Below, one piece after another: positions 4,202 through 59,561 of a DNA stretch of 64,000 nucleotides (position 1 is the first letter of the stretch; the number at the start of each line of letters is the position of its first letter). Both the position numbers and the translations under genes were made by a program. The stretch is from Nitrospirota bacterium (GTDB taxonomy: Bacteria; Nitrospirota; UBA9217), in assembly GCA_963818475.1 (NCBI GenBank), contig CAWFSF010000002.1, forward strand, positions 448,001 to 512,000, in the 5' to 3' direction. The notes beneath the pieces were generated by a model that ran no database searches, was not told the DNA's origin, and was given only the letters and a program-made list of their open reading frames with translations.

Positions 4202-4225
4202 ATTCCACGCAATAGGGCAAAAAAC

Positions 4226-4360
4226 GGCAAGAAATTTTCTCGCAAAGGCGCAAAGGTCGCAAAGAAAAGCAAATCATTCGGGGGTTAAAAGCCAGGTCTT
4301 AAAGGTTTCCTTTGCGACCTTTGCGCCTTTGCGAGAGACGCCTTTGCTTGTCCGGGTTAA
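4226..4360. repeat. Inverted-repeat element with periodic CGCAAAG arms
   Basis: ctcgcaaaggcgcaaaggtcgcaaag / ctttgcgacctttgcgcctttgcgag; related copy at 49833-50017. Confidence 0.8.
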
Positions 4361-33707: not shown

Positions 33708-34935
33708 CTAGTTCTCATTTCCCTGCTGCTCCGTCTCGACCTCATACCAGTTGATCTTTCGCGTCATATACATCACTACGGCAAGAATGATCAAGAGCCC
33801 GATACTGCCCATGATGAGCGCGTAATCCTCGAGCTGCAGAATTATAAACAGGTAGGAATACAGGACCGTCAGTATCCCCAGGATGGTGAGCGCAAATCTT
33901 GAATTGGATACGATCGCCTTTGCGTACCCCGAGATCATAAGCGTAACAGCGGTGGCCGACAGGAGGTAGGCATAATTAAAATGCATATGCTCGGACAATG
34001 ACAATACCAGTGTGTAAAAAATCAGGATTGCCATCCCAATGAGGATGTATTGAATGGGATGAACTCTCCGTTTATTGATTATTTCGGAAAAGAAGAACGC
34101 CGCAAAGGTGAAAACGAGGAACATGATCGAATATTTAGCAAGCCGCGTCGATTTCTGGTAAACATCGGCTGTCAGGATCAACTGCAGTCCGAAGGCCGAT
34201 GGTTCAACCTTATATTGAGCGCCTTCCCAGAATTGCGGGTAGTTTCTGTTCAGGTGCAGTATCTTCCAGCTTGCGGAAAAACCGTCTTTTTTCACCTCGC
34301 GGGCGACCGGCAGGAACGCGCCATTAAAGCTTGGCGAAGGCCAGCTTGAATTGATCTTGACCGTATTGGACTCGCCAACGGGGATAAGGCTTATCTGTTC
34401 GCTGCCGTTCAGGTTCAAGGCAAAGGAAAACTTGTTGGGCGCGTTCGGCGTCAAGGACCTGATCAGCGTGCCGACGCCTGCTTCGGCAAGATCGGTCGTC
34501 TTGAGCCCCGGGCTGGCATTATAGGCCACGCCGTTGAAGTTAAGGACGATCTTGTCCTGTATCCCGCGCATATCGGTAATGCCGAGCGAGAGATAGGCCT
34601 TGTCCCAGAGGATGTTCTTTTGATCGATGTTCAGCTGGCTCATGGGCGGCAGTTTGAAGTTTCCGCTGAACTGGAGCTTGACATTATAGAGGACCGCCTC
34701 AAAGAGGCTTCGATAGCGCACTTCGGGTTTTATTTCGCCGATTACATCCACTGTTTCAGGCAGGATGTGCAGATAGTTGAGATTGAATTGTGTTTTTCCA
34801 TCGTCGTCTTTGAAAAATGTCTTGAAGGGGACGGTAATGAACGGCCCGGTTATCGTCTGACGGTCTCCCCATTTTTGGCTGATCTCGTGCACGACCGAAT
34901 CTCGTCGATCCTGTCGTTCGCTTATCAGGCTTTGG
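33708..34935 (-). pseudogene. creD: Inner membrane protein CreD, 5'-truncated
   Basis: WPSPSFNGAFLP, KYSIMFL, HPIQYILIG, LSLSEH, LEDYALIMGS, MYMTRKINWY; similarity begins at QSLISERQDR and the first TM/start is missing. Confidence 0.75.
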
Positions 34936-35066: not shown

Positions 35067-35768
35067 TCAAGGAACATCGCTTTCTTCCCACGTTACTTCT
35101 TTCATATCAGGAAGAGCTGACAGACGTTTAACAATATCGGACCAGTGTTTTTGACTTTCGTCGCTGTGATGCAGCCGCATGCGGTACGTAACGGTATTTG
35201 CGGAAATGTCCCTGTGGTAATTAACGAACTGGAGAGAGAGGTCTTTGTATTCGGCGAGAAGCTCTTTGATGTGACCCAGGAGCCCTTCCGTGGTAACTGC
35301 CTTCACCGTGAGGCTTGTGTAAATTCTACGGTGAGAAAGGGCTTTTACCGGGTAGGCGAGATAGAGACTCGCAAGAATAATGGCCGTCGTTACTAAGGCG
35401 GTGATAATGTATCCTGCACCGACAGCAAGGCCGATACCGGTAGCCGCCCAGAGCCCCGCAGCAGTGGTCAATCCTCGCACGGAACCCTTGCCTTTAATTA
35501 TCGCGCCAGCCCCCAGAAAACCCATGCTGGCAATTGCATAGGAAGCGATTCTGCCGGGATCAAGACGTACCACGGATTTATCTGAGAGAGTTCGATAGAG
35601 CTCCTCCATGTGCAGGGAGAGCATCATCATGAGGCAGGAGGCCACGCCGACGATAACGTAGGTCCTGAATCCGGCTGCCTGTCCGTGAGCTTCACGCTCA
35701 AATCCTATTGCACCTCCAACAGCCGCTGCGAGCAATAGCTTGCCGATATCATACGTGATCGTGTCCAT
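35067..35768 (-). CDS. MgtC/SapB family protein
   Basis: IGFERE, AGFRT, DPGRIA, GFLGAGAI, VRGLTTAAGLW. Confidence 0.92.
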   Translation of the reverse strand: MDTITYDIGKLLLAAAVGGAIGFEREAHGQAAGFRTYVIVGVASCLMMMLSLHMEELYRTLSDKSVVRLDPGRIASYAIASMGFLGAGAIIKGKGSVRGLTTAAGLWAATGIGLAVGAGYIITALVTTAIILASLYLAYPVKALSHRRIYTSLTVKAVTTEGLLGHIKELLAEYKDLSLQFVNYHRDISANTVTYRMRLHHSDESQKHWSDIVKRLSALPDMKEVTWEESDVP

Positions 35769-35814: not shown

Positions 35815-35873
35815 GTTTAACGATGAGTTGAGCCCCGCGCCGGAGAGCGCGGGGCTCGAACGACTTGTTAGCT
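35815..35873 (-). mobile_element. attC site (59 bp)
   Basis: Minus strand AGCTAAC-aagtcgttcgagccccgcgctctccggcgcggggctcaactcatc-GTTAAAC. Confidence 0.92.
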
Positions 35874-36377
35874 TTTATATAGGTCTGACCACGCCAGTCT
35901 CTCCTCAAGCAGTTCATCAATCTCTGAGGTATCTAAATTGATAAGAAGGGCACCGATCTTGTGATCCCCCCTAGCAAGTGCAAGCGCGCCCAGAATACTT
36001 CTGATGAGAAGTGGATCTGTTGTATTCTGCAAATCTGCGATTCCGAGCTGAAGCAGCTTTTGCCAAGCTTGTTCATATTCTTTGAGTAGCCATGAAGGAA
36101 TGGCCGGATTAGCTTTCCGATGCCTTTCAATTTCAATTGTTGATATCAACGCATAAAGATTCCAGTCTCGCTCAGCAACTGTCTGGCTAATTTTCACAAT
36201 ATGGGGTACTGCTGCGTAAGATGCCTCGCCAACATCGCCTTGATGATGTAGATTCTCCCAAAGCTCGCCCCAGACTGCTTTATCAAGTTCAAGTTTCCGC
36301 AGGGCAGGCGTTGGGTCGTATTCAATCTTGTATCCGCCCTTAAGCTTTTGCCATCTTGGGTCATCGAGTTCCATCAT
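35868..36377 (-). CDS. Gene cassette 4, hypothetical 169 aa
   Basis: ORF fills the space between two attC sites; stop codon inside R''. Confidence 0.85.
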   Translation of the reverse strand: MMELDDPRWQKLKGGYKIEYDPTPALRKLELDKAVWGELWENLHHQGDVGEASYAAVPHIVKISQTVAERDWNLYALISTIEIERHRKANPAIPSWLLKEYEQAWQKLLQLGIADLQNTTDPLLIRSILGALALARGDHKIGALLINLDTSEIDELLEERLAWSDLYKS

Positions 36378-36385
36378 ATTCCCTC

Positions 36386-36441
36386 AGCTAACGCGGAGTT
36401 CACACGCCGCGAAGCGGTCGGCGTGGAACGACAAGTTTGAC
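36386..36441 (-). mobile_element. attC site (56 bp)
   Basis: GTCAAAC-ttgtcgttccacgccgaccgcttcgcggcgtgtgaactccgc-GTTAGCT. Confidence 0.88.
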
Positions 36442-36455
36442 TTCGGCATTAACTA

Positions 36456-36893
36456 CTAGTCGCCTATGAAGCGGATAAAGTGATGTGGCCCTGCGTTCGC
36501 CGTCTCTTGTAAAAGTTTCAAGACTTTTTCTATGTGCAACTTCATTTTAGTGAGTTCTGATTTTAGCTCAAATTCACTCGCATTTGTTCGAGTTTCATAC
36601 TCCTTTACGATGGTTGCATCCCAGTTCGCACGACGTGCGGCCTTCAACCCTTCTTCTCTATATGCACGTAGACGCTTCGTTGTGATTACGGCTAAAGCTG
36701 CCCTGAACTCGTCAATAAGTATCGGAATCTGTAATTGATTAAATATCGTGTCGCCGTATGGATCAATGAATCCGAGACATCTCGTTCCTTCCAGTTTTGC
36801 AGTGCCTAACAGGAGGCTGACAAACCCGCGTGGGTCGCCAAGCGTCTCTTCATCAGCCTTATCCGACGGCTCAATTTTCAAATCAATACCCAT
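36456..36893 (-). CDS. Gene cassette 3, hypothetical 145 aa
   Basis: Start MGIDLKIE just after attC R'; FIDPYGDTIFNQLQ..FIRFIGD. Confidence 0.8.
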   Translation of the reverse strand: MGIDLKIEPSDKADEETLGDPRGFVSLLLGTAKLEGTRCLGFIDPYGDTIFNQLQIPILIDEFRAALAVITTKRLRAYREEGLKAARRANWDATIVKEYETRTNASEFELKSELTKMKLHIEKVLKLLQETANAGPHHFIRFIGD

Positions 36894-36904
36894 AATTATA
36901 TACC

Positions 36905-36976
36905 GTCCAACGACCAAGCTCAGCCGAGGAAGGCCACAAACGCGGCCTGACGTCGGCTGGAGCACTCGTGCTATGT
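36905..36976 (-). mobile_element. attC site with degenerate R''
   Basis: ACATAGC-acgagtgctccagccgacgtcaggccgcg..ggccttcctcggctgagcttggtc-GTTGGAC. Confidence 0.78.
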
Positions 36977-36981
36977 TGCTG

Positions 36982-37245
36982 CTAGGCACCGAAGAAGACC
37001 CAACTGCTGGACGAACGAGTGACCAAATCTTCTTCGGTTTGAAAAACCCGGACTACCTCGTTTGGATTAAACGGCATTTCCTTCTCACCCTGCACGGAGA
37101 AAACTTCGTTCGGATAGACGAGCAGCACCTTGTGAATGATTCTTCCGTTCGCAAGCTCTACGCTGACAATCGAGCCGTCCTGTTTGAATTCTTCAAATGG
37201 ACCATAGCGACGAATCACATCAATTGGAATTTCATATTTAGCCAT
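36982..37245 (-). CDS. Gene cassette 2, hypothetical 87 aa
   Basis: ORF bounded by attC sites. Confidence 0.8.
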   Translation of the reverse strand: MAKYEIPIDVIRRYGPFEEFKQDGSIVSVELANGRIIHKVLLVYPNEVFSVQGEKEMPFNPNEVVRVFQTEEDLVTRSSSSWVFFGA

Positions 37246-37265
37246 AGGTACTCAGCTCTTTTGCA

Positions 37266-37330
37266 ACATAATGCTCAGCTAAGGGGCGCGGTGGTCTTTT
37301 GCCGCGTCCCTCTTGAGCGTTTTGTTATAT
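37266..37330 (-). mobile_element. attC site with mutated R' core (ATT instead of GTT)
   Basis: ATATAAC-aaaacgctcaagagggacgcggcaaaagaccaccgcgccccttagctgagc-ATTATGT. Confidence 0.82.
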
Positions 37331-38169
37331 TTTTCTACTGGCTTAACACCCTCAACAATTGATGTGGGCTTACTACCTTTAAGTTCTTTTTCTAGCGTTA
37401 ACGGCCCGATTTCTTCTGGTTTAAATGAGATGTTATTTTCTGAAGAGATTTTGCGGATTGTATATGTTCGAATTACTTGTTTCGTAATCCTATTAATAGG
37501 GGCACTCACAACAGTGTCTCCATATTGACGCAAAACAACCTCGTCATCACTCCCTATGACAAGCAAATATTCCACTTGACGTCGTGCTGTTCCGAGTCCG
37601 GCAGAGTATGAAATTGTAAGTAAAAAAATGGTTACTAAAACAACCATGATCCAGCTGACACCGTAATACCTTGAAATATTATCAAGCACGGTATCATAAC
37701 GTAAATCTTCTTCATGTCTGTGCTGAATGCGCTCGGCATAGCTTCGCTTATCTCGGAATGCTAAAGCCGGAAGAATGAAGTCAAAGAAAACCATAAGACC
37801 AAAAAGAATCCAAAGATATTTTAAATTCGCAATATTTTCTCCGGCTATTAACACATAAGCTATGAATACTAAGAGAAAACCATTGTAAAGCCTTAAACGT
37901 CGCCGAATAGGAGTTGGAAGTTTTATCCACAACGGATTGAAGACCTCGGCAGTCTGCCAGAGTAAAAATATGATACCTAGTAAGTAAACAAAAGCAAGAA
38001 ATGTTCCAGGCAATGTGATTTCTATTAGTTGAGCTGATATCCCATAATATTTGACAATACCCAATTCATATACATATGCGACTGCATATGAGAAGGCCGG
38101 AAAAGCGGCGATCAACAGAGCGCTAGAAATCCAAGTCTCTTTTTTGTTTGATTCGTTTTCTGTATTCAT
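37279..38169 (-). CDS. Gene cassette 1, multi-TM membrane protein 296 aa
   Basis: AT-rich ORF with ~5 hydrophobic segments; reads into its own attC. Confidence 0.82.
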   Translation of the reverse strand: MNTENESNKKETWISSALLIAAFPAFSYAVAYVYELGIVKYYGISAQLIEITLPGTFLAFVYLLGIIFLLWQTAEVFNPLWIKLPTPIRRRLRLYNGFLLVFIAYVLIAGENIANLKYLWILFGLMVFFDFILPALAFRDKRSYAERIQHRHEEDLRYDTVLDNISRYYGVSWIMVVLVTIFLLTISYSAGLGTARRQVEYLLVIGSDDEVVLRQYGDTVVSAPINRITKQVIRTYTIRKISSENNISFKPEEIGPLTLEKELKGSKPTSIVEGVKPVEKYNKTLKRDAAKDHRAP

Positions 38170-38175
38170 AGCAAT

Positions 38176-38200
38176 TTATAACCAGTTATTGACTATAAGT
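38176..38200 (-). mobile_element. Candidate attI (array start)
   Basis: cttatagtcaat-aactg-GTTATAA; R site matches cassette 1 R'' ATATAAC at 6/7; no attC left arm seen upstream. Confidence 0.55.
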
Positions 38201-38206
38201 AAATCG

Positions 38207-38318
38207 GTTTGTAATATTACAAACAAGTTTATAATATTAGATGCCGGTTTGTAATAGTATAAACTTCCAAGGTTTGTAGTATTACAAACCCGACTTAATC
38301 ACTTGGGTTTCTAATATT
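38207..38318. repeat. Array of 18-bp palindromes, consensus GTTTGTAATATTACAAAC
   Basis: Copies start at 38207, 38227, 38247, 38272 and 38307; the last is split by the IS and completed at 40195-40200. Confidence 0.85.
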
Positions 38319-40188
38319 GATGGTCTCGTAAGAAGTCACGCAGCAAAAAACGCCGCGAATTGCATATCCGACCACTGGAGACTGCCCCAACATCTAATGG
38401 CCGCCATAACTCGCTGCAATCGCTCTTTGAAAGCGCAAGACGACAAGGAAAAGGTGCCTATCGGAGCCGGTTTCCCTTCGGTTTCCCGGTTTCGATACGC
38501 CGCCGCCCGGATGATATTGATCCCCGCCGCTTTTAAGTAAGCGGCGCAGCTCACTGCGGACATGCCCCGAACGCGAAGGTTCTTGATTCCGGTCAAGCGA
38601 TCAAGCTGGGACATGGTCCCTTCGATTCCCGCACGAAAGCGGTACCGGTCCCGAAACTCCGGGGAGTCTTCGTACACACGCCGCCGTGCCAGACGGATTG
38701 CTTTAACGTCGTACCTGAGAGAGCGTCCATGTTTGATAGCTTTCGTCGGGCACGTTTTCTTTCGGGAACAGCCGCGACAGGTTCTTTTTGAGAAAAACGC
38801 GAAGTACTTCTCAGTCTGGCTTTCGGTGTGTTCCGGCGCACATCCCATCGGACATGCGGTTACCTCGTTCACACTGTTCATGGTGAATTCCGTGAGCGAC
38901 GAAGCCTTGGGTCCTGTGCCCTTGACCGGCGAAACGATTTCAACACCCAGAGCTGCCGCCTTCCGGCAGTTCTCGTAACCGCCATAAAGGGTATCGGCCA
39001 GGGCTTCCTTCGGCTTCAGGCCAAGCTCCTCGGTGGTTTCGATGAGCGGGATCAGGGCATGAGCATCGCGCTTGTGGGCAGGTTCGACGATCACACCGGT
39101 GATCAAATTCAGGGTGTCGATATCCTCGGAAGTGCCGTAGCTTTCGGCGACCTGCATCTGATAGCCTTGGCCCTTATAGCCGCTATATCCGGCCTCAGGG
39201 TCGGAAGGGTTCTGCAATGAGTCAGACGAGACGTCTTTGTTCTCTTTGACCAAGACCTGGGTTGTATGCGTATCAACACGCTCCAGGATGCACTGTTCCT
39301 TGAGCAGCCGGACAAGGAACTGATAGCTGGTCATGGTGACAACCGGCTCGTTTCCCCTGAAACGTTCCACCAGGGTGAATACGTCCTCAGCCAGGCTTGC
39401 AAGTGTCTTCGTCGATTCCGAAGGCTTGATCATCGAGAAGACGCCTTCACCCTGCTTGGTCATGTACCGATCGGAGAGAGTCTTGTCCAAAGCTTCGTAG
39501 AGCTCTTTATGATGGCGCTTGAGGTTTACGAGGAACTTCTTGATGGTCTTGACGAACAGTCCGATCCGGCCCAAATGGCGCATGTTGGAAAAGATATGGA
39601 CCGAGTCGAAACGCTGTTTTGATACGTCAACGGAAAAGACCTCGGCAAGTTTCTTGGTAACGTCATCGAAGATATCCTGGTACAGGTTCCGCTCGGTCAG
39701 GACATTCCGCATGGTCCAGAGGGTTTTGGGACTGACATAAGCGTCGGCATCGGCCGTACTGGTAATGTTCAGCGCGTAATGCCACTGGAGATTGTAGGCA
39801 TACTGGTCTACTGCTTCCTCGTCGGTCATATCGTGCATCTGCTGGATCATCATGAGGCCGAGCATGGCGTAAAGCTCCTTGGTCGGCGCTCCCATGACCG
39901 GGTTGTACTTGGAGAAGACCTTCTCGACCGGAAGTGTAGGGAGGATGTGTTCCCGAAAGATCTTTGCCCAGGACGCCTCGATGCGTTGCTTTCGCTTGGG
40001 ACCCAGGAAGGGAAACTGGTCGAACATGTCGTGGGTTTTGTGATCCTTAGTATAGATCATGCCGGCTCCTCAAATGCGATGAGTGATACCGTTGTGTATC
40101 ACAAAACCCCTTGTGCTGCAAAGGAAATATGATGATTCATGCGATTATTTTTGGCTGATTATGCAAATATTATTCTTACGAGACCATC
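38319..40188 (-). mobile_element. Complete insertion sequence, IS1182/IS5-like
   Basis: Perfect 16-bp terminal IR GATGGTCTCGTAAGAA; AATATT duplication at 38313-38318 and 40189-40194. Confidence 0.92.
38336..40060 (-). CDS. DDE transposase (574 aa)
   Basis: QRFDSVHI, QNPSDPEAGY, ADTLYG, YRFRAGIEGTMSQL. Confidence 0.9.
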   Translation of the reverse strand: MIYTKDHKTHDMFDQFPFLGPKRKQRIEASWAKIFREHILPTLPVEKVFSKYNPVMGAPTKELYAMLGLMMIQQMHDMTDEEAVDQYAYNLQWHYALNITSTADADAYVSPKTLWTMRNVLTERNLYQDIFDDVTKKLAEVFSVDVSKQRFDSVHIFSNMRHLGRIGLFVKTIKKFLVNLKRHHKELYEALDKTLSDRYMTKQGEGVFSMIKPSESTKTLASLAEDVFTLVERFRGNEPVVTMTSYQFLVRLLKEQCILERVDTHTTQVLVKENKDVSSDSLQNPSDPEAGYSGYKGQGYQMQVAESYGTSEDIDTLNLITGVIVEPAHKRDAHALIPLIETTEELGLKPKEALADTLYGGYENCRKAAALGVEIVSPVKGTGPKASSLTEFTMNSVNEVTACPMGCAPEHTESQTEKYFAFFSKRTCRGCSRKKTCPTKAIKHGRSLRYDVKAIRLARRRVYEDSPEFRDRYRFRAGIEGTMSQLDRLTGIKNLRVRGMSAVSCAAYLKAAGINIIRAAAYRNRETEGKPAPIGTFSLSSCAFKERLQRVMAAIRCWGSLQWSDMQFAAFFAA

Positions 40189-40194
40189 AATATT

Positions 40195-40356
40195 ACAAGC
40201 TTTTCTAATTCGTTGCTCATGATTTTACCGTATTCTATGTACCATGCCTTTGCCTCCGGATCCTATTTTCCCTGCTGCGCCCCTGACCTTCTCCCTTAAA
40301 GCTTTGTCGCCATATCCAATACGCACGGGACCCATGGTGTTCAGGTCTACTTTCAT
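40195..40356 (-). pseudogene. Remnant of a small basic protein gene; 3' end continues at 38318-38282 across the IS
   Basis: PVRIGYGDKALREKVRGAAGK, +1 shift with TAG, DPEAKAWYIEYGKIMSNELEKLVI, then LETQVIKSGL* after removing the IS. Confidence 0.55.
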
Positions 40357-57656: not shown

Positions 57657-57671
57657 CGTGAAACAAAAAGA

Positions 57672-58045
57672 TCAGAGCGGGTCGTAAGCCGAGTTCTGTC
57701 CTCCCGGTTGCCCGGAAGTGGTGATCATTTATCTGGGCCTTCGATTGCTCGAAGGCACGAGCGATCTACCCGGAAGTCTCGGACGGGCCGTCCTTACTCC
57801 CGATTGCTCGGGAGACGCTTCCCTATGTGACCTTGCTCCAGGCGGGGTTTTCCAAGCACTCCCGGTCGCCCGGGAATCTGGTGGGCTCTTACCCCACCGT
57901 TTCACCCTTACCCTTGCGGGCGGTCTTCTTTTCTGTGGCACTATCCATGGGGTCGCCCCCTGTCCCGTTTCGGGACCGCCTTGCCCTGCGGAGCTCGGAC
58001 TTTCCTCCCTCCGTTGCCGGAGAGCGATCACCTCACCCGCTCTGA
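57672..58045 (-). ncRNA. rnpB: RNase P RNA (type A)
   Basis: GAGGAAAGTCCGAGCT near 5' end, ACAGAACTCGGCTTA near 3' end, complementary termini. Confidence 0.97.
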
Positions 58046-59485: not shown

Positions 59486-59561
59486 TGGTGGGCCCACCAG
59501 GACTCGAACCTGGGACCAACCGGTTATGAGCCGGTAGCTCTACCAACTGAGCTATGGGCCC
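59486..59561 (-). tRNA. tRNA with CAU anticodon, most likely tRNA-Ile2
   Basis: GGGCCCATAGCTCAGTTGGTAGAGC..CTCATAA..GGTTCGAGTCC..GGGCCCACCA, 76 nt with CCA. Confidence 0.92.

Follow-up and report, generated by a model that had tools for sequence, protein, structure and literature searches.

Remnant of an integron platform with a small-protein gene and a palindrome array beside attI in a Nitrospirota genome

A stretch of 64,000 nucleotides from a Nitrospirota bacterium (genome G000; assembly GCA_963818475.1, contig CAWFSF010000002.1, positions 448,001 to 512,000 of the forward strand; hereafter the window) carries, at positions 38,176 to 40,356, an array of 18-bp palindromes, the remains of a small gene and an insertion sequence (IS), all lying next to an attI core that is followed by cassettes bounded by attC-like sites. 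On balance we favour reading this locus as the dead head of a chromosomal integron variant in which a dimeric accessory protein, the product of the small gene, would bind the palindrome array next to attI.

The platform remnant in the window

The 18-mer GTTTGTAATATTACAAAC has three matches in the window at up to three mismatches (palindromes 1, 3 and 4 in Table 1), compared with an expectation of 0.00 from 100 dinucleotide-preserving shuffles. A repeat search added the degenerate palindrome 2, which places the first three starts exactly 20 bp apart, and a half copy at 38306–38318. Joining the flanks, with the IS and one AATATT taken out, yields GTTTCTAATATTACAAGC, a fifth palindrome situated 35 bp past the fourth, which is the fifth-site offset of intact relatives (sites at 344/364/384/409/444 in locus L023 and at 115/135/155/180/215 in L024). 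The start-to-start spacing of the five copies is 20, 20, 25 and 35 bp, and the motif and repeat searches bear out the initial annotation of this DNA, made from the letters alone, which had listed five palindromes with the first three at a 20-bp period. Rfam at gathering thresholds reported nothing at the array.

Continuous reading of the small gene from 40356 (minus strand) needs a +1 step and meets an in-frame TAG. As initially proposed, the gene points at the cassettes and regains its 3' end when the IS is removed, an operation that restores the fifth palindrome too; the restored frame stops inside palindrome 4, and the gene therefore overlaps two palindromes, as had also been claimed. Only residues ~62–114 of the intact 117-aa relatives align with the remnant, indicating that the gene is 5'-truncated as well. 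The small protein is basic, with an isoelectric point (pI) of 9.57. What was initially described as a small basic gene is, in the window, just the final ~45% of a 117-aa reading frame. The remnant peptide matched no Pfam family at E ≤ 1.

Directly bordering the palindromes is a conserved attI core (...CAATAACTGG^TT, the caret marking the junction), beyond which lie three cassettes. GTTATAA (38176–38182, minus strand), noted initially as the site of the first cassette, proved to be where homology with five other loci ends (...AACTGGTT^): the six loci have ~110 bp in common up to ...AACTGGTT and are divergent beyond. One of the comparisons is internal to the genome, which has a second array of the same palindromes (G000:C6:1511819–1511881); the two G000 loci share ~110 bp up to exactly ...CTTATAGTCAATAACTGGTT and then read GTT^ATAAATT in the window versus GTT^GAATCTT in the second locus. 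Both the array and the junction recur in four more genomes of the order. A shared-then-divergent junction of this kind is the pattern that would be expected of an attI crossover point.

The cassettes end in imperfect palindromes of attC form, AAC-N5-stem...stem-N5-GTT (three units, minus strand), and the region is a low-GC island (GC 0.41–0.51 compared with ~0.6 elsewhere). With three attC-like sites between 35819 and 37330 and no IntI match in the window, the locus falls under the definition of a cluster of attC sites lacking integron-integrases (CALIN). No protein exceeds the TIGR02249 (IntI) cut-off on the window's contig or anywhere in G000, which has IntI fragments only. Set beside its relatives, the window is missing intI as well as the small gene's 5' half; with these deleted, the rest of the gene frameshifted, stopped and split by the IS, and only intI fragments left in the genome, the array is a relic. 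The window platform is accordingly a fossil, useful mainly as a pointer to its family.

Table 1. Features of the platform remnant and its cassettes (positions are those of the window)
Feature	Position	Strand	Description
attI core	38180..38199	minus	CTTATAGTCAATAACTGG^TT; homology with other platforms stops at GTT
Palindrome 1	38207..38224		proximal, perfect (0 mismatches); start on gene strand 34 bp from AATAAC of core
Palindrome 2	38227..38244		degenerate, 4 mismatches
Palindrome 3	38247..38264		2 mismatches
Palindrome 4	38272..38289		1 mismatch; contains stop codon of restored small gene (38282–38284, minus strand)
Palindrome 5, left 12 bases	38307..38318		GTTTCTAATATT; interrupted by IS
Palindrome 5, right part	40189..40200		duplicated AATATT + ACAAGC
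Small (candidate accessory) gene remnant	40189..40356, resumes 38282–38312 past IS	minus	+1 frameshift, in-frame TAG
IS	38319..40188	minus	terminal inverted repeats GATGGTCTCGTAAGAA; AATATT at both flanks
IS transposase	38336..40060	minus	574 aa; DUF772, DDE_Tnp_1_6 and DDE_Tnp_1 domains
Cassette 1 open reading frame (ORF)	37279..38169	minus	296 aa, no Pfam family; hydrophobic by eye
attC-like site 1, end of cassette 1	37261..37330	minus	ATATAAC…GTTGCAA
Cassette 2	36456..37245	minus	overlapping ORFs of 87 aa (36982–37245) and 177 aa (36456–36989), no clear family
attC-like site 2	36386..36441	minus	…AAC TTGTC GTTCCACGCCG…CGGCGTGTGAAC TCCGC GTTAGCT; by eye, missed by folding heuristic; near-identical site in L061
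Cassette 3 ORF	35868..36377	minus	169 aa, no Pfam family
attC-like site 3, end of cassette 3	35819..35869	minus	AAC-N5-GTTCGAGCCCCGCGC...GCGCGGGGCTCAAC-N5-GTT; -16.4 kcal/mol by folding heuristic

Intact relatives of the platform

An intact small gene of 117–121 aa is present in four related genomes of the order, and homologues occur in 32 of 64 genomes of the order with up to five per genome. Scanning one genome per species gave 106 relatives, from which 80 loci were kept; their records are titled Nitrospirota/Nitrospirae, Geobacteraceae/Desulfuromonadales or 'Deltaproteobacteria', plus one Betaproteobacteria. Cultured Geomonas, Geobacter and Geomobilimonas strains are among the carriers, making the module directly testable. 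The wider family amounts to 3477 clusters at 90% identity among 4799 candidates, and 2551 at 50% identity (E ≤ 0.001), all of them unnamed. A tblastn search of plasmids returned a single partial match, on a Trichlorobacter lovleyi replicon, and the module is therefore not a plasmid feature.

Intact loci share a layout of divergent intI, sigma-70-like promoter, small gene, palindromes, attI core (AATAAC-NN-G^TT) and attC cassettes. The initial annotation had placed the small ORF in the remnant of a non-canonical integron platform, a placement which agrees with its being a conserved component in the intact relatives; its further claim that the small gene stands instead of intI does not hold, as these relatives have a bona fide divergent IntI (TIGR02249) ~80–300 bp upstream of the small gene. 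IntI exceeds the TIGR02249 cut-off in 28 of the 64 genomes of the order. It is frameshifted in L024, L025 and L026, that of L024 being split over two frames (155.5 and 180.5 bits on TIGR02249, cut-off 265; profile positions 2–159 and 164–313). Classical IntI loci in this order share the core, with a promoter-like site immediately in front of it, but lack both the small gene and the palindromes. As an observation on the integrase itself, IntI of the order (e.g. L024:846–2278) occupies frames of ~450–560 aa and has an N-terminal extension of ~160 aa that includes a second SAM-like stretch.

At least one family palindrome follows the gene in 76 of the 80 loci, and at least two in 64. Within the order a palindrome overlaps or comes after the 3' end of the gene in 25 of 26 loci, the other (L052) being a shortened remnant only, and an AATAAC-NN-GTT core is found downstream wherever the sequence runs on uninterrupted (26 loci compared). 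Successive sites are spaced 20 bp (44 intervals), 25 bp (28) or 45 bp (22) apart. Among 49 loci, the nearest detected palindrome starts 32–34 bp from the core in 25; in 13 others the distance is 53/54 or 74 bp, one or two 20-bp steps farther. A 33–34 bp register is kept even in single-site arrays (L135, L149 and L136), and both the site spacing and this distance from proximal site to core are conserved in two phyla; the window, at 34 bp, follows the same rule. Hairpins of attC-like form (≤75 nt) number 60 in 248 kb downstream of the module versus 10 in 351 kb upstream, and are present in 36 of the 59 loci with at least 1.5 kb of downstream sequence.

Among the 72 loci with at least 2 kb of upstream sequence, a divergent IntI precedes the module in 34, a co-oriented peptidase-S24 gene in 12 and neither in 26. 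The initial annotation had mentioned similar small proteins beside tyrosine recombinases in Deltaproteobacteria, and this is matched by relatives adjoining IntI in Geobacteraceae and in 'Deltaproteobacteria' metagenome-assembled genomes (MAGs). The stretch that would hold an outward promoter is deleted in the window. In L025 the small gene is preceded by TTGACT-17-TATAGT (a pattern match only). The interval from the small gene to the cassettes has no terminator-like site, and its cassette strand has no further promoter-like one, which implies that cassette transcription must cross the array.

The S24-headed platforms have no intI within 8 kb. Their order is often a divergent SRAP gene, then the S24 gene, sometimes a GxxExxY/PDDEXK_3 gene, the small gene with its palindromes and core, and, after the cassettes, a Y-family polymerase gene (IMS/UmuC-like). 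S24, small gene and IMS occur together in L106, L109, L113 and L125, while in L118, whose upstream flank is short, the small gene and IMS are present; the same S24-to-IMS layout in L057, L058, L059 and L066 may overlap with the L106/L109/L113/L118/L125 set. As the attI module and its cassettes lie between UmuD-like and UmuC-like genes, the platform is nested in an umuDC-like operon. The S24 protein scores 102–106 bits on PF00717, 123–125 on the UmuD-type model NF007621 (cut-off 110) and 112–122 on TIGR00498 (cut-off 110.95), and each of the five genomes tested encodes a stronger LexA (>200 bits) elsewhere, which makes the S24 gene a second copy. The sequence GTGAAC-N4-GTTCAC lies between a TTGACA -35 element and the -10 element of both intI promoters (L024, L025 and L075) and S24-gene promoters (G000:C5 ~382000–382260, L057 and L058). 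It is probably an SOS box, GAAC-N4-GTTC being what we take to be a type of LexA box. An attI with cassettes inside an SOS-boxed umuDC-like operon would extend the known link between SOS and integrons from the integrase to the cassette array.

The small protein, its palindromes and their candidate roles

The palindromes of the family fall into five types by half-site: A (GTTTGTA), B (GTTTATG), C (GCAT(C/A)TA with an ATAT centre), D (GCAT(C/A)TA with a CNNG or TATG centre) and E (GCATCCT). A tree of the small protein was built after trimming everything past LEK, since that tail is encoded by the first palindrome. Mapped onto it, the types require 12 changes, a number as low as which was reached in 0 of 200 shuffles (mean 34.2). 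Both phyla are represented in the type-D clade (33 rows; support of 98 in the Shimodaira-Hasegawa-like approximate likelihood-ratio test, SH-aLRT). The first split of the IntI tree, in comparison, is that between phyla (SH-aLRT 100), with types C and D on each side, and the core sequence goes with phylum as well (AACGAGTT versus AACT(G/T)GTT). Several types can also share a genome, A, B and D at separate remnants in G000 and two or three types in each of five named MAGs, which indicates that the specificity factor is encoded at the locus rather than being a genome-wide host factor. Of 213 sites, only 54% have a Watson-Crick pair at palindrome positions 5 and 14, and 68 have A facing G there; this mispairing fits degenerate half-sites rather than hairpin pairing.

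At least five other decayed platforms have left remnants in G000 itself, types A, B and D being represented along with one linked to an S24 gene (C6:1511819–1511881, C6:~1940574–1940900, C6:~1750100–1750504, C6:~215700–217900 and C5:381072–382000). The second type-A array of this genome (L005 11985–12524, minus strand) has attC-like hairpins on both sides of its palindromes and may be a rearranged or composite array.

At E ≤ 1 the only Pfam match of the small protein is DUF5710 (PF18974), with no match to Xis, Cox/Apl or AlpA/HTH_17 families. The match spans only ~23 residues (77–99), where the protein has the motif G(K/R)W(D/N)PExKxW(Y/F), and the two type-A proteins that were scored reach 26.9 and 26.6 bits, the cut-off being 26.5; other subgroups score 22.8–25.8 bits or are unreported, so that most members of the small-protein family are under the cut-off. 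We know of no function for DUF5710. NCBIfam gave nothing relevant, PHROGs at E ≤ 0.1 a single match of unknown function (E 0.063), a PDB profile search 0 matches at E ≤ 1, and the ESM Atlas, apart from one DUF5710 cluster at 0.81, nothing but unnamed clusters. A make-up of two tandem DUF5710-like repeats was considered and dropped after an hhalign comparison of its N-terminal and C-terminal halves (probability 13.8%).

A first AlphaFold2 (AF2) model from 23 alignment rows (predicted local distance difference test, pLDDT, 70) was uninformative in structure searches (best Foldseek E 0.41, best VIA Z 4.0). With 148 rows the model improved to a pLDDT of 88 (predicted template-modelling score, pTM, 0.51) and has two small beta-alpha-beta-beta units. 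The homodimer model has an interface score (ipSAE) of 0.61 compared with 0.00 for the best control, with agreement between runs for at least 69% of contacts and a pLDDT of at least 79; 20 of 30 solved homo-pairs, and 1 of 23 single-chain proteins, come up to the ipSAE mark used. The predicted interface is a symmetric strand pairing of residues 38–50, and the modelling supports a symmetric homodimer. Covariation with palindrome type, the presence of locus-specific types within one genome and the predicted symmetric dimer make the small protein the best-supported candidate for the palindrome binder.

The module, consisting of a gene for a basic protein of ~117 aa and up to five, rarely more, phased palindromes, separates the attI core from the intI/promoter region. 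We posit that the small protein would bind each palindrome as a symmetric dimer, and that the bound dimers would form a nucleoprotein array in fixed register adjoining attI. Such an array might assist or license the action of IntI at its attI, comparable to the accessory or arm-type complexes of tyrosine recombinases. It may also gate read-through into the cassettes, as cassette transcription must cross it; the recombination role is the one we favour because the register to the core is fixed. A bolder and, in our judgement, doubtful extension is that orthogonal pairs of protein and palindrome act as 'address labels', each recruiting or licensing an IntI supplied in trans to its own attI, including the attI in the umuDC operon. 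If so, one genome could run several independently controlled cassette-capture platforms, and the small protein would be the first integron-encoded accessory recombination factor and a concrete case of the 'missing specific host factor' discussed for chromosomal integrons.

Several observations weigh against binding of the array by the small protein in the service of recombination. The small-protein tree is a quick one with SH-aLRT support only, its careful search being unfinished, and the IntI tree also clusters by type within Geobacteraceae. In residues 1–108 only I/V at position 96 separates type C from D, no column separates A/B from C/D/E and none cleanly tracks class; the tail that does covary is encoded by the first palindrome itself. 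As gene and palindromes overlap, co-inheritance alone would yield much of the tree signal. In comparison with solved structures, no recognised DNA-binding fold emerges from the 148-row model (Foldseek E at best 0.91, VIA Z at best 3.6), a missing match that is compatible with membership of a winged-helix or helix-turn-helix (HTH) family. The attC-like sites were called with a home-made folding heuristic instead of a curated attC model, and it recovered two of the three sites seen by eye in the window along with two unrelated matches elsewhere in the 64 kb. The present evidence, moreover, does not separate a role in recombination from one in transcription.

A rival view is that the small protein is a transcription factor only, its palindromes being a roadblock or operator array that gates cassette read-through with no part in recombination. 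The array does lie within the transcript path, behind the strong promoter-like site of L025, where no other promoter-like and no terminator-like site comes before the cassettes, and classical loci have their promoter-like site directly before the core instead. We regard this as unlikely, given that a roadblock needs no fixed 33–34 bp register to the core, yet single-site arrays keep it, and that the module is always accompanied by an attI core. Less likely still is a long attI in which the palindromes serve as additional IntI-binding sites and the small protein does an unrelated job. The fixed distance to the core would fit such sites, the half-sites of types A and B begin with GTT and end with AAC as integron core sites do, and a review describes two supplementary integrase-binding repeats in attI1. 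Types C, D and E, however, begin with GCAT; the palindrome type does not track IntI lineage, C and D being on both sides of the IntI tree while the core changes with that lineage; palindromes are absent from IntI loci in the order that share the core; and platforms lacking intI within 8 kb retain their arrays.

Accounts that dispense with a dedicated protein, or assign the array to a protein encoded elsewhere in the genome, fare worse. Inverted repeats of 18 bp in a transcribed, AT-rich stretch, beside a system that works with folded DNA (attC), could be nucleic-acid structures, either a DNA cruciform or hairpin or an RNA stem-loop that processes or stabilises the transcript. This is very improbable in view of the incomplete pairing at positions 5 and 14, the AT-rich stems of 7 bp, the phasing in helical-turn units (20/25 bp) and the fact that copies within an array have one sequence type and not merely pairing potential. 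Equally hard to credit is a genome-wide host factor, such as LexA, a LexA/UmuD-like paralogue or an IHF-like protein. An S24 gene of LexA/UmuD-like character heads 12 of the 72 platforms and SOS-type operators are nearby, but mixed palindrome types in one genome match the type of the adjacent small gene, the IntI-type platforms have no S24 gene nearby, and the SOS-type promoter operator GAAC-N4-GTTC differs in sequence from the palindromes.

Integrons are usually given as three parts, intI, attI and the cassette promoter Pc. Tyrosine recombinases more generally have accessory or directionality factors, among them lambda Xis, P2 Cox and 186 Apl as well as PepA, ArgR and ArcA at cer and psi, and with Cox and Apl one protein is both a transcription regulator and a recombination accessory. 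The reading we favour likens the module to Xis, Cox, Apl, PepA and ArgR, in that a small basic protein goes with several phased sites whose distance from the crossover core is fixed. It differs from these factors in that curated-family, PDB and fold searches revealed no sequence or fold similarity to them, the sites are dyad-symmetric and 18 bp long, and the partner recombinase uses folded single-stranded attC. Common to the module and to sedentary chromosomal integrons or CALIN are cassettes with attC on one strand, an attI ending in G^TT and, in the relatives, a TIGR02249 IntI that is divergent and has an SOS-type operator in its promoter, whereas a protein gene and phased palindromes between promoter and attI, an attI module that also occurs without intI in an umuDC-like operon, and an IntI with a ~160-aa N-terminal extension set the present loci apart. 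DR1 and DR2, the direct repeats of attI1 in class 1 integrons, are likewise extra repeated protein-binding sites beside the simple site; they are bound by IntI1, whereas the binding here is predicted and concerns palindromes whose sequence follows a separate locus-encoded protein.

A parallel to the nested platforms is in Pseudomonas, where, according to PMC4542609, integron-like elements (ILEs) of 9–16 kb with three recombinase genes are inserted within rulB of rulAB, homologues of umuDC. These too are cassette-bearing, recombinase-associated elements tied to a umuDC-type SOS operon, and the difference is that here an attI module with attC cassettes lies between umuD-like and umuC-like genes. 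No description of the module was found in the literature searched (integrons, DUF5710, attI, umuD, Geobacter, Nitrospirota; subscription journals and supplements fall outside this coverage), and we conclude that it is an integron platform variant of undescribed design. It has been argued that dependence on host factors may decide which integrons can become mobile; the module is a conserved, platform-encoded candidate for such a factor, along with its DNA sites.

Insertion sequences and neighbouring features

The IS that splits the fifth palindrome, or close relatives of it, lies inside such palindromes at five places (the window, G000:C6:215874–217710, L037, L041 and L049), and every time the IS end GATGGTCTCGTAAGAA comes after base 12 of the 18-bp palindrome. 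These insertion points suggest an IS that targets palindromes.

On the plus strand, a promoter-like TTGACT-16/17-TAATAT (window 38189–38218; L025 3432–3460) overlaps the attI core and palindrome 1 and is directed away from the cassettes. It was rejected as a conserved feature and is probably incidental because types C and D are without TTGACT.

Just past the last attC-like site, within the low-GC island, an MgtC-family gene (35067–35768, minus strand) is next to a CreD homologue (33708–34892, minus strand) that starts at profile position 39 of 428. Farther away in the window are a near-perfect inverted repeat of 136 nt (4223–4358) with CGCAAAGG-type units (-37.6 kcal/mol, DNA parameters) and two Rfam matches, a class A RNase P RNA at 57670–58043 (minus strand, 278 bits) and a tRNA gene at 59489–59561 (minus strand).

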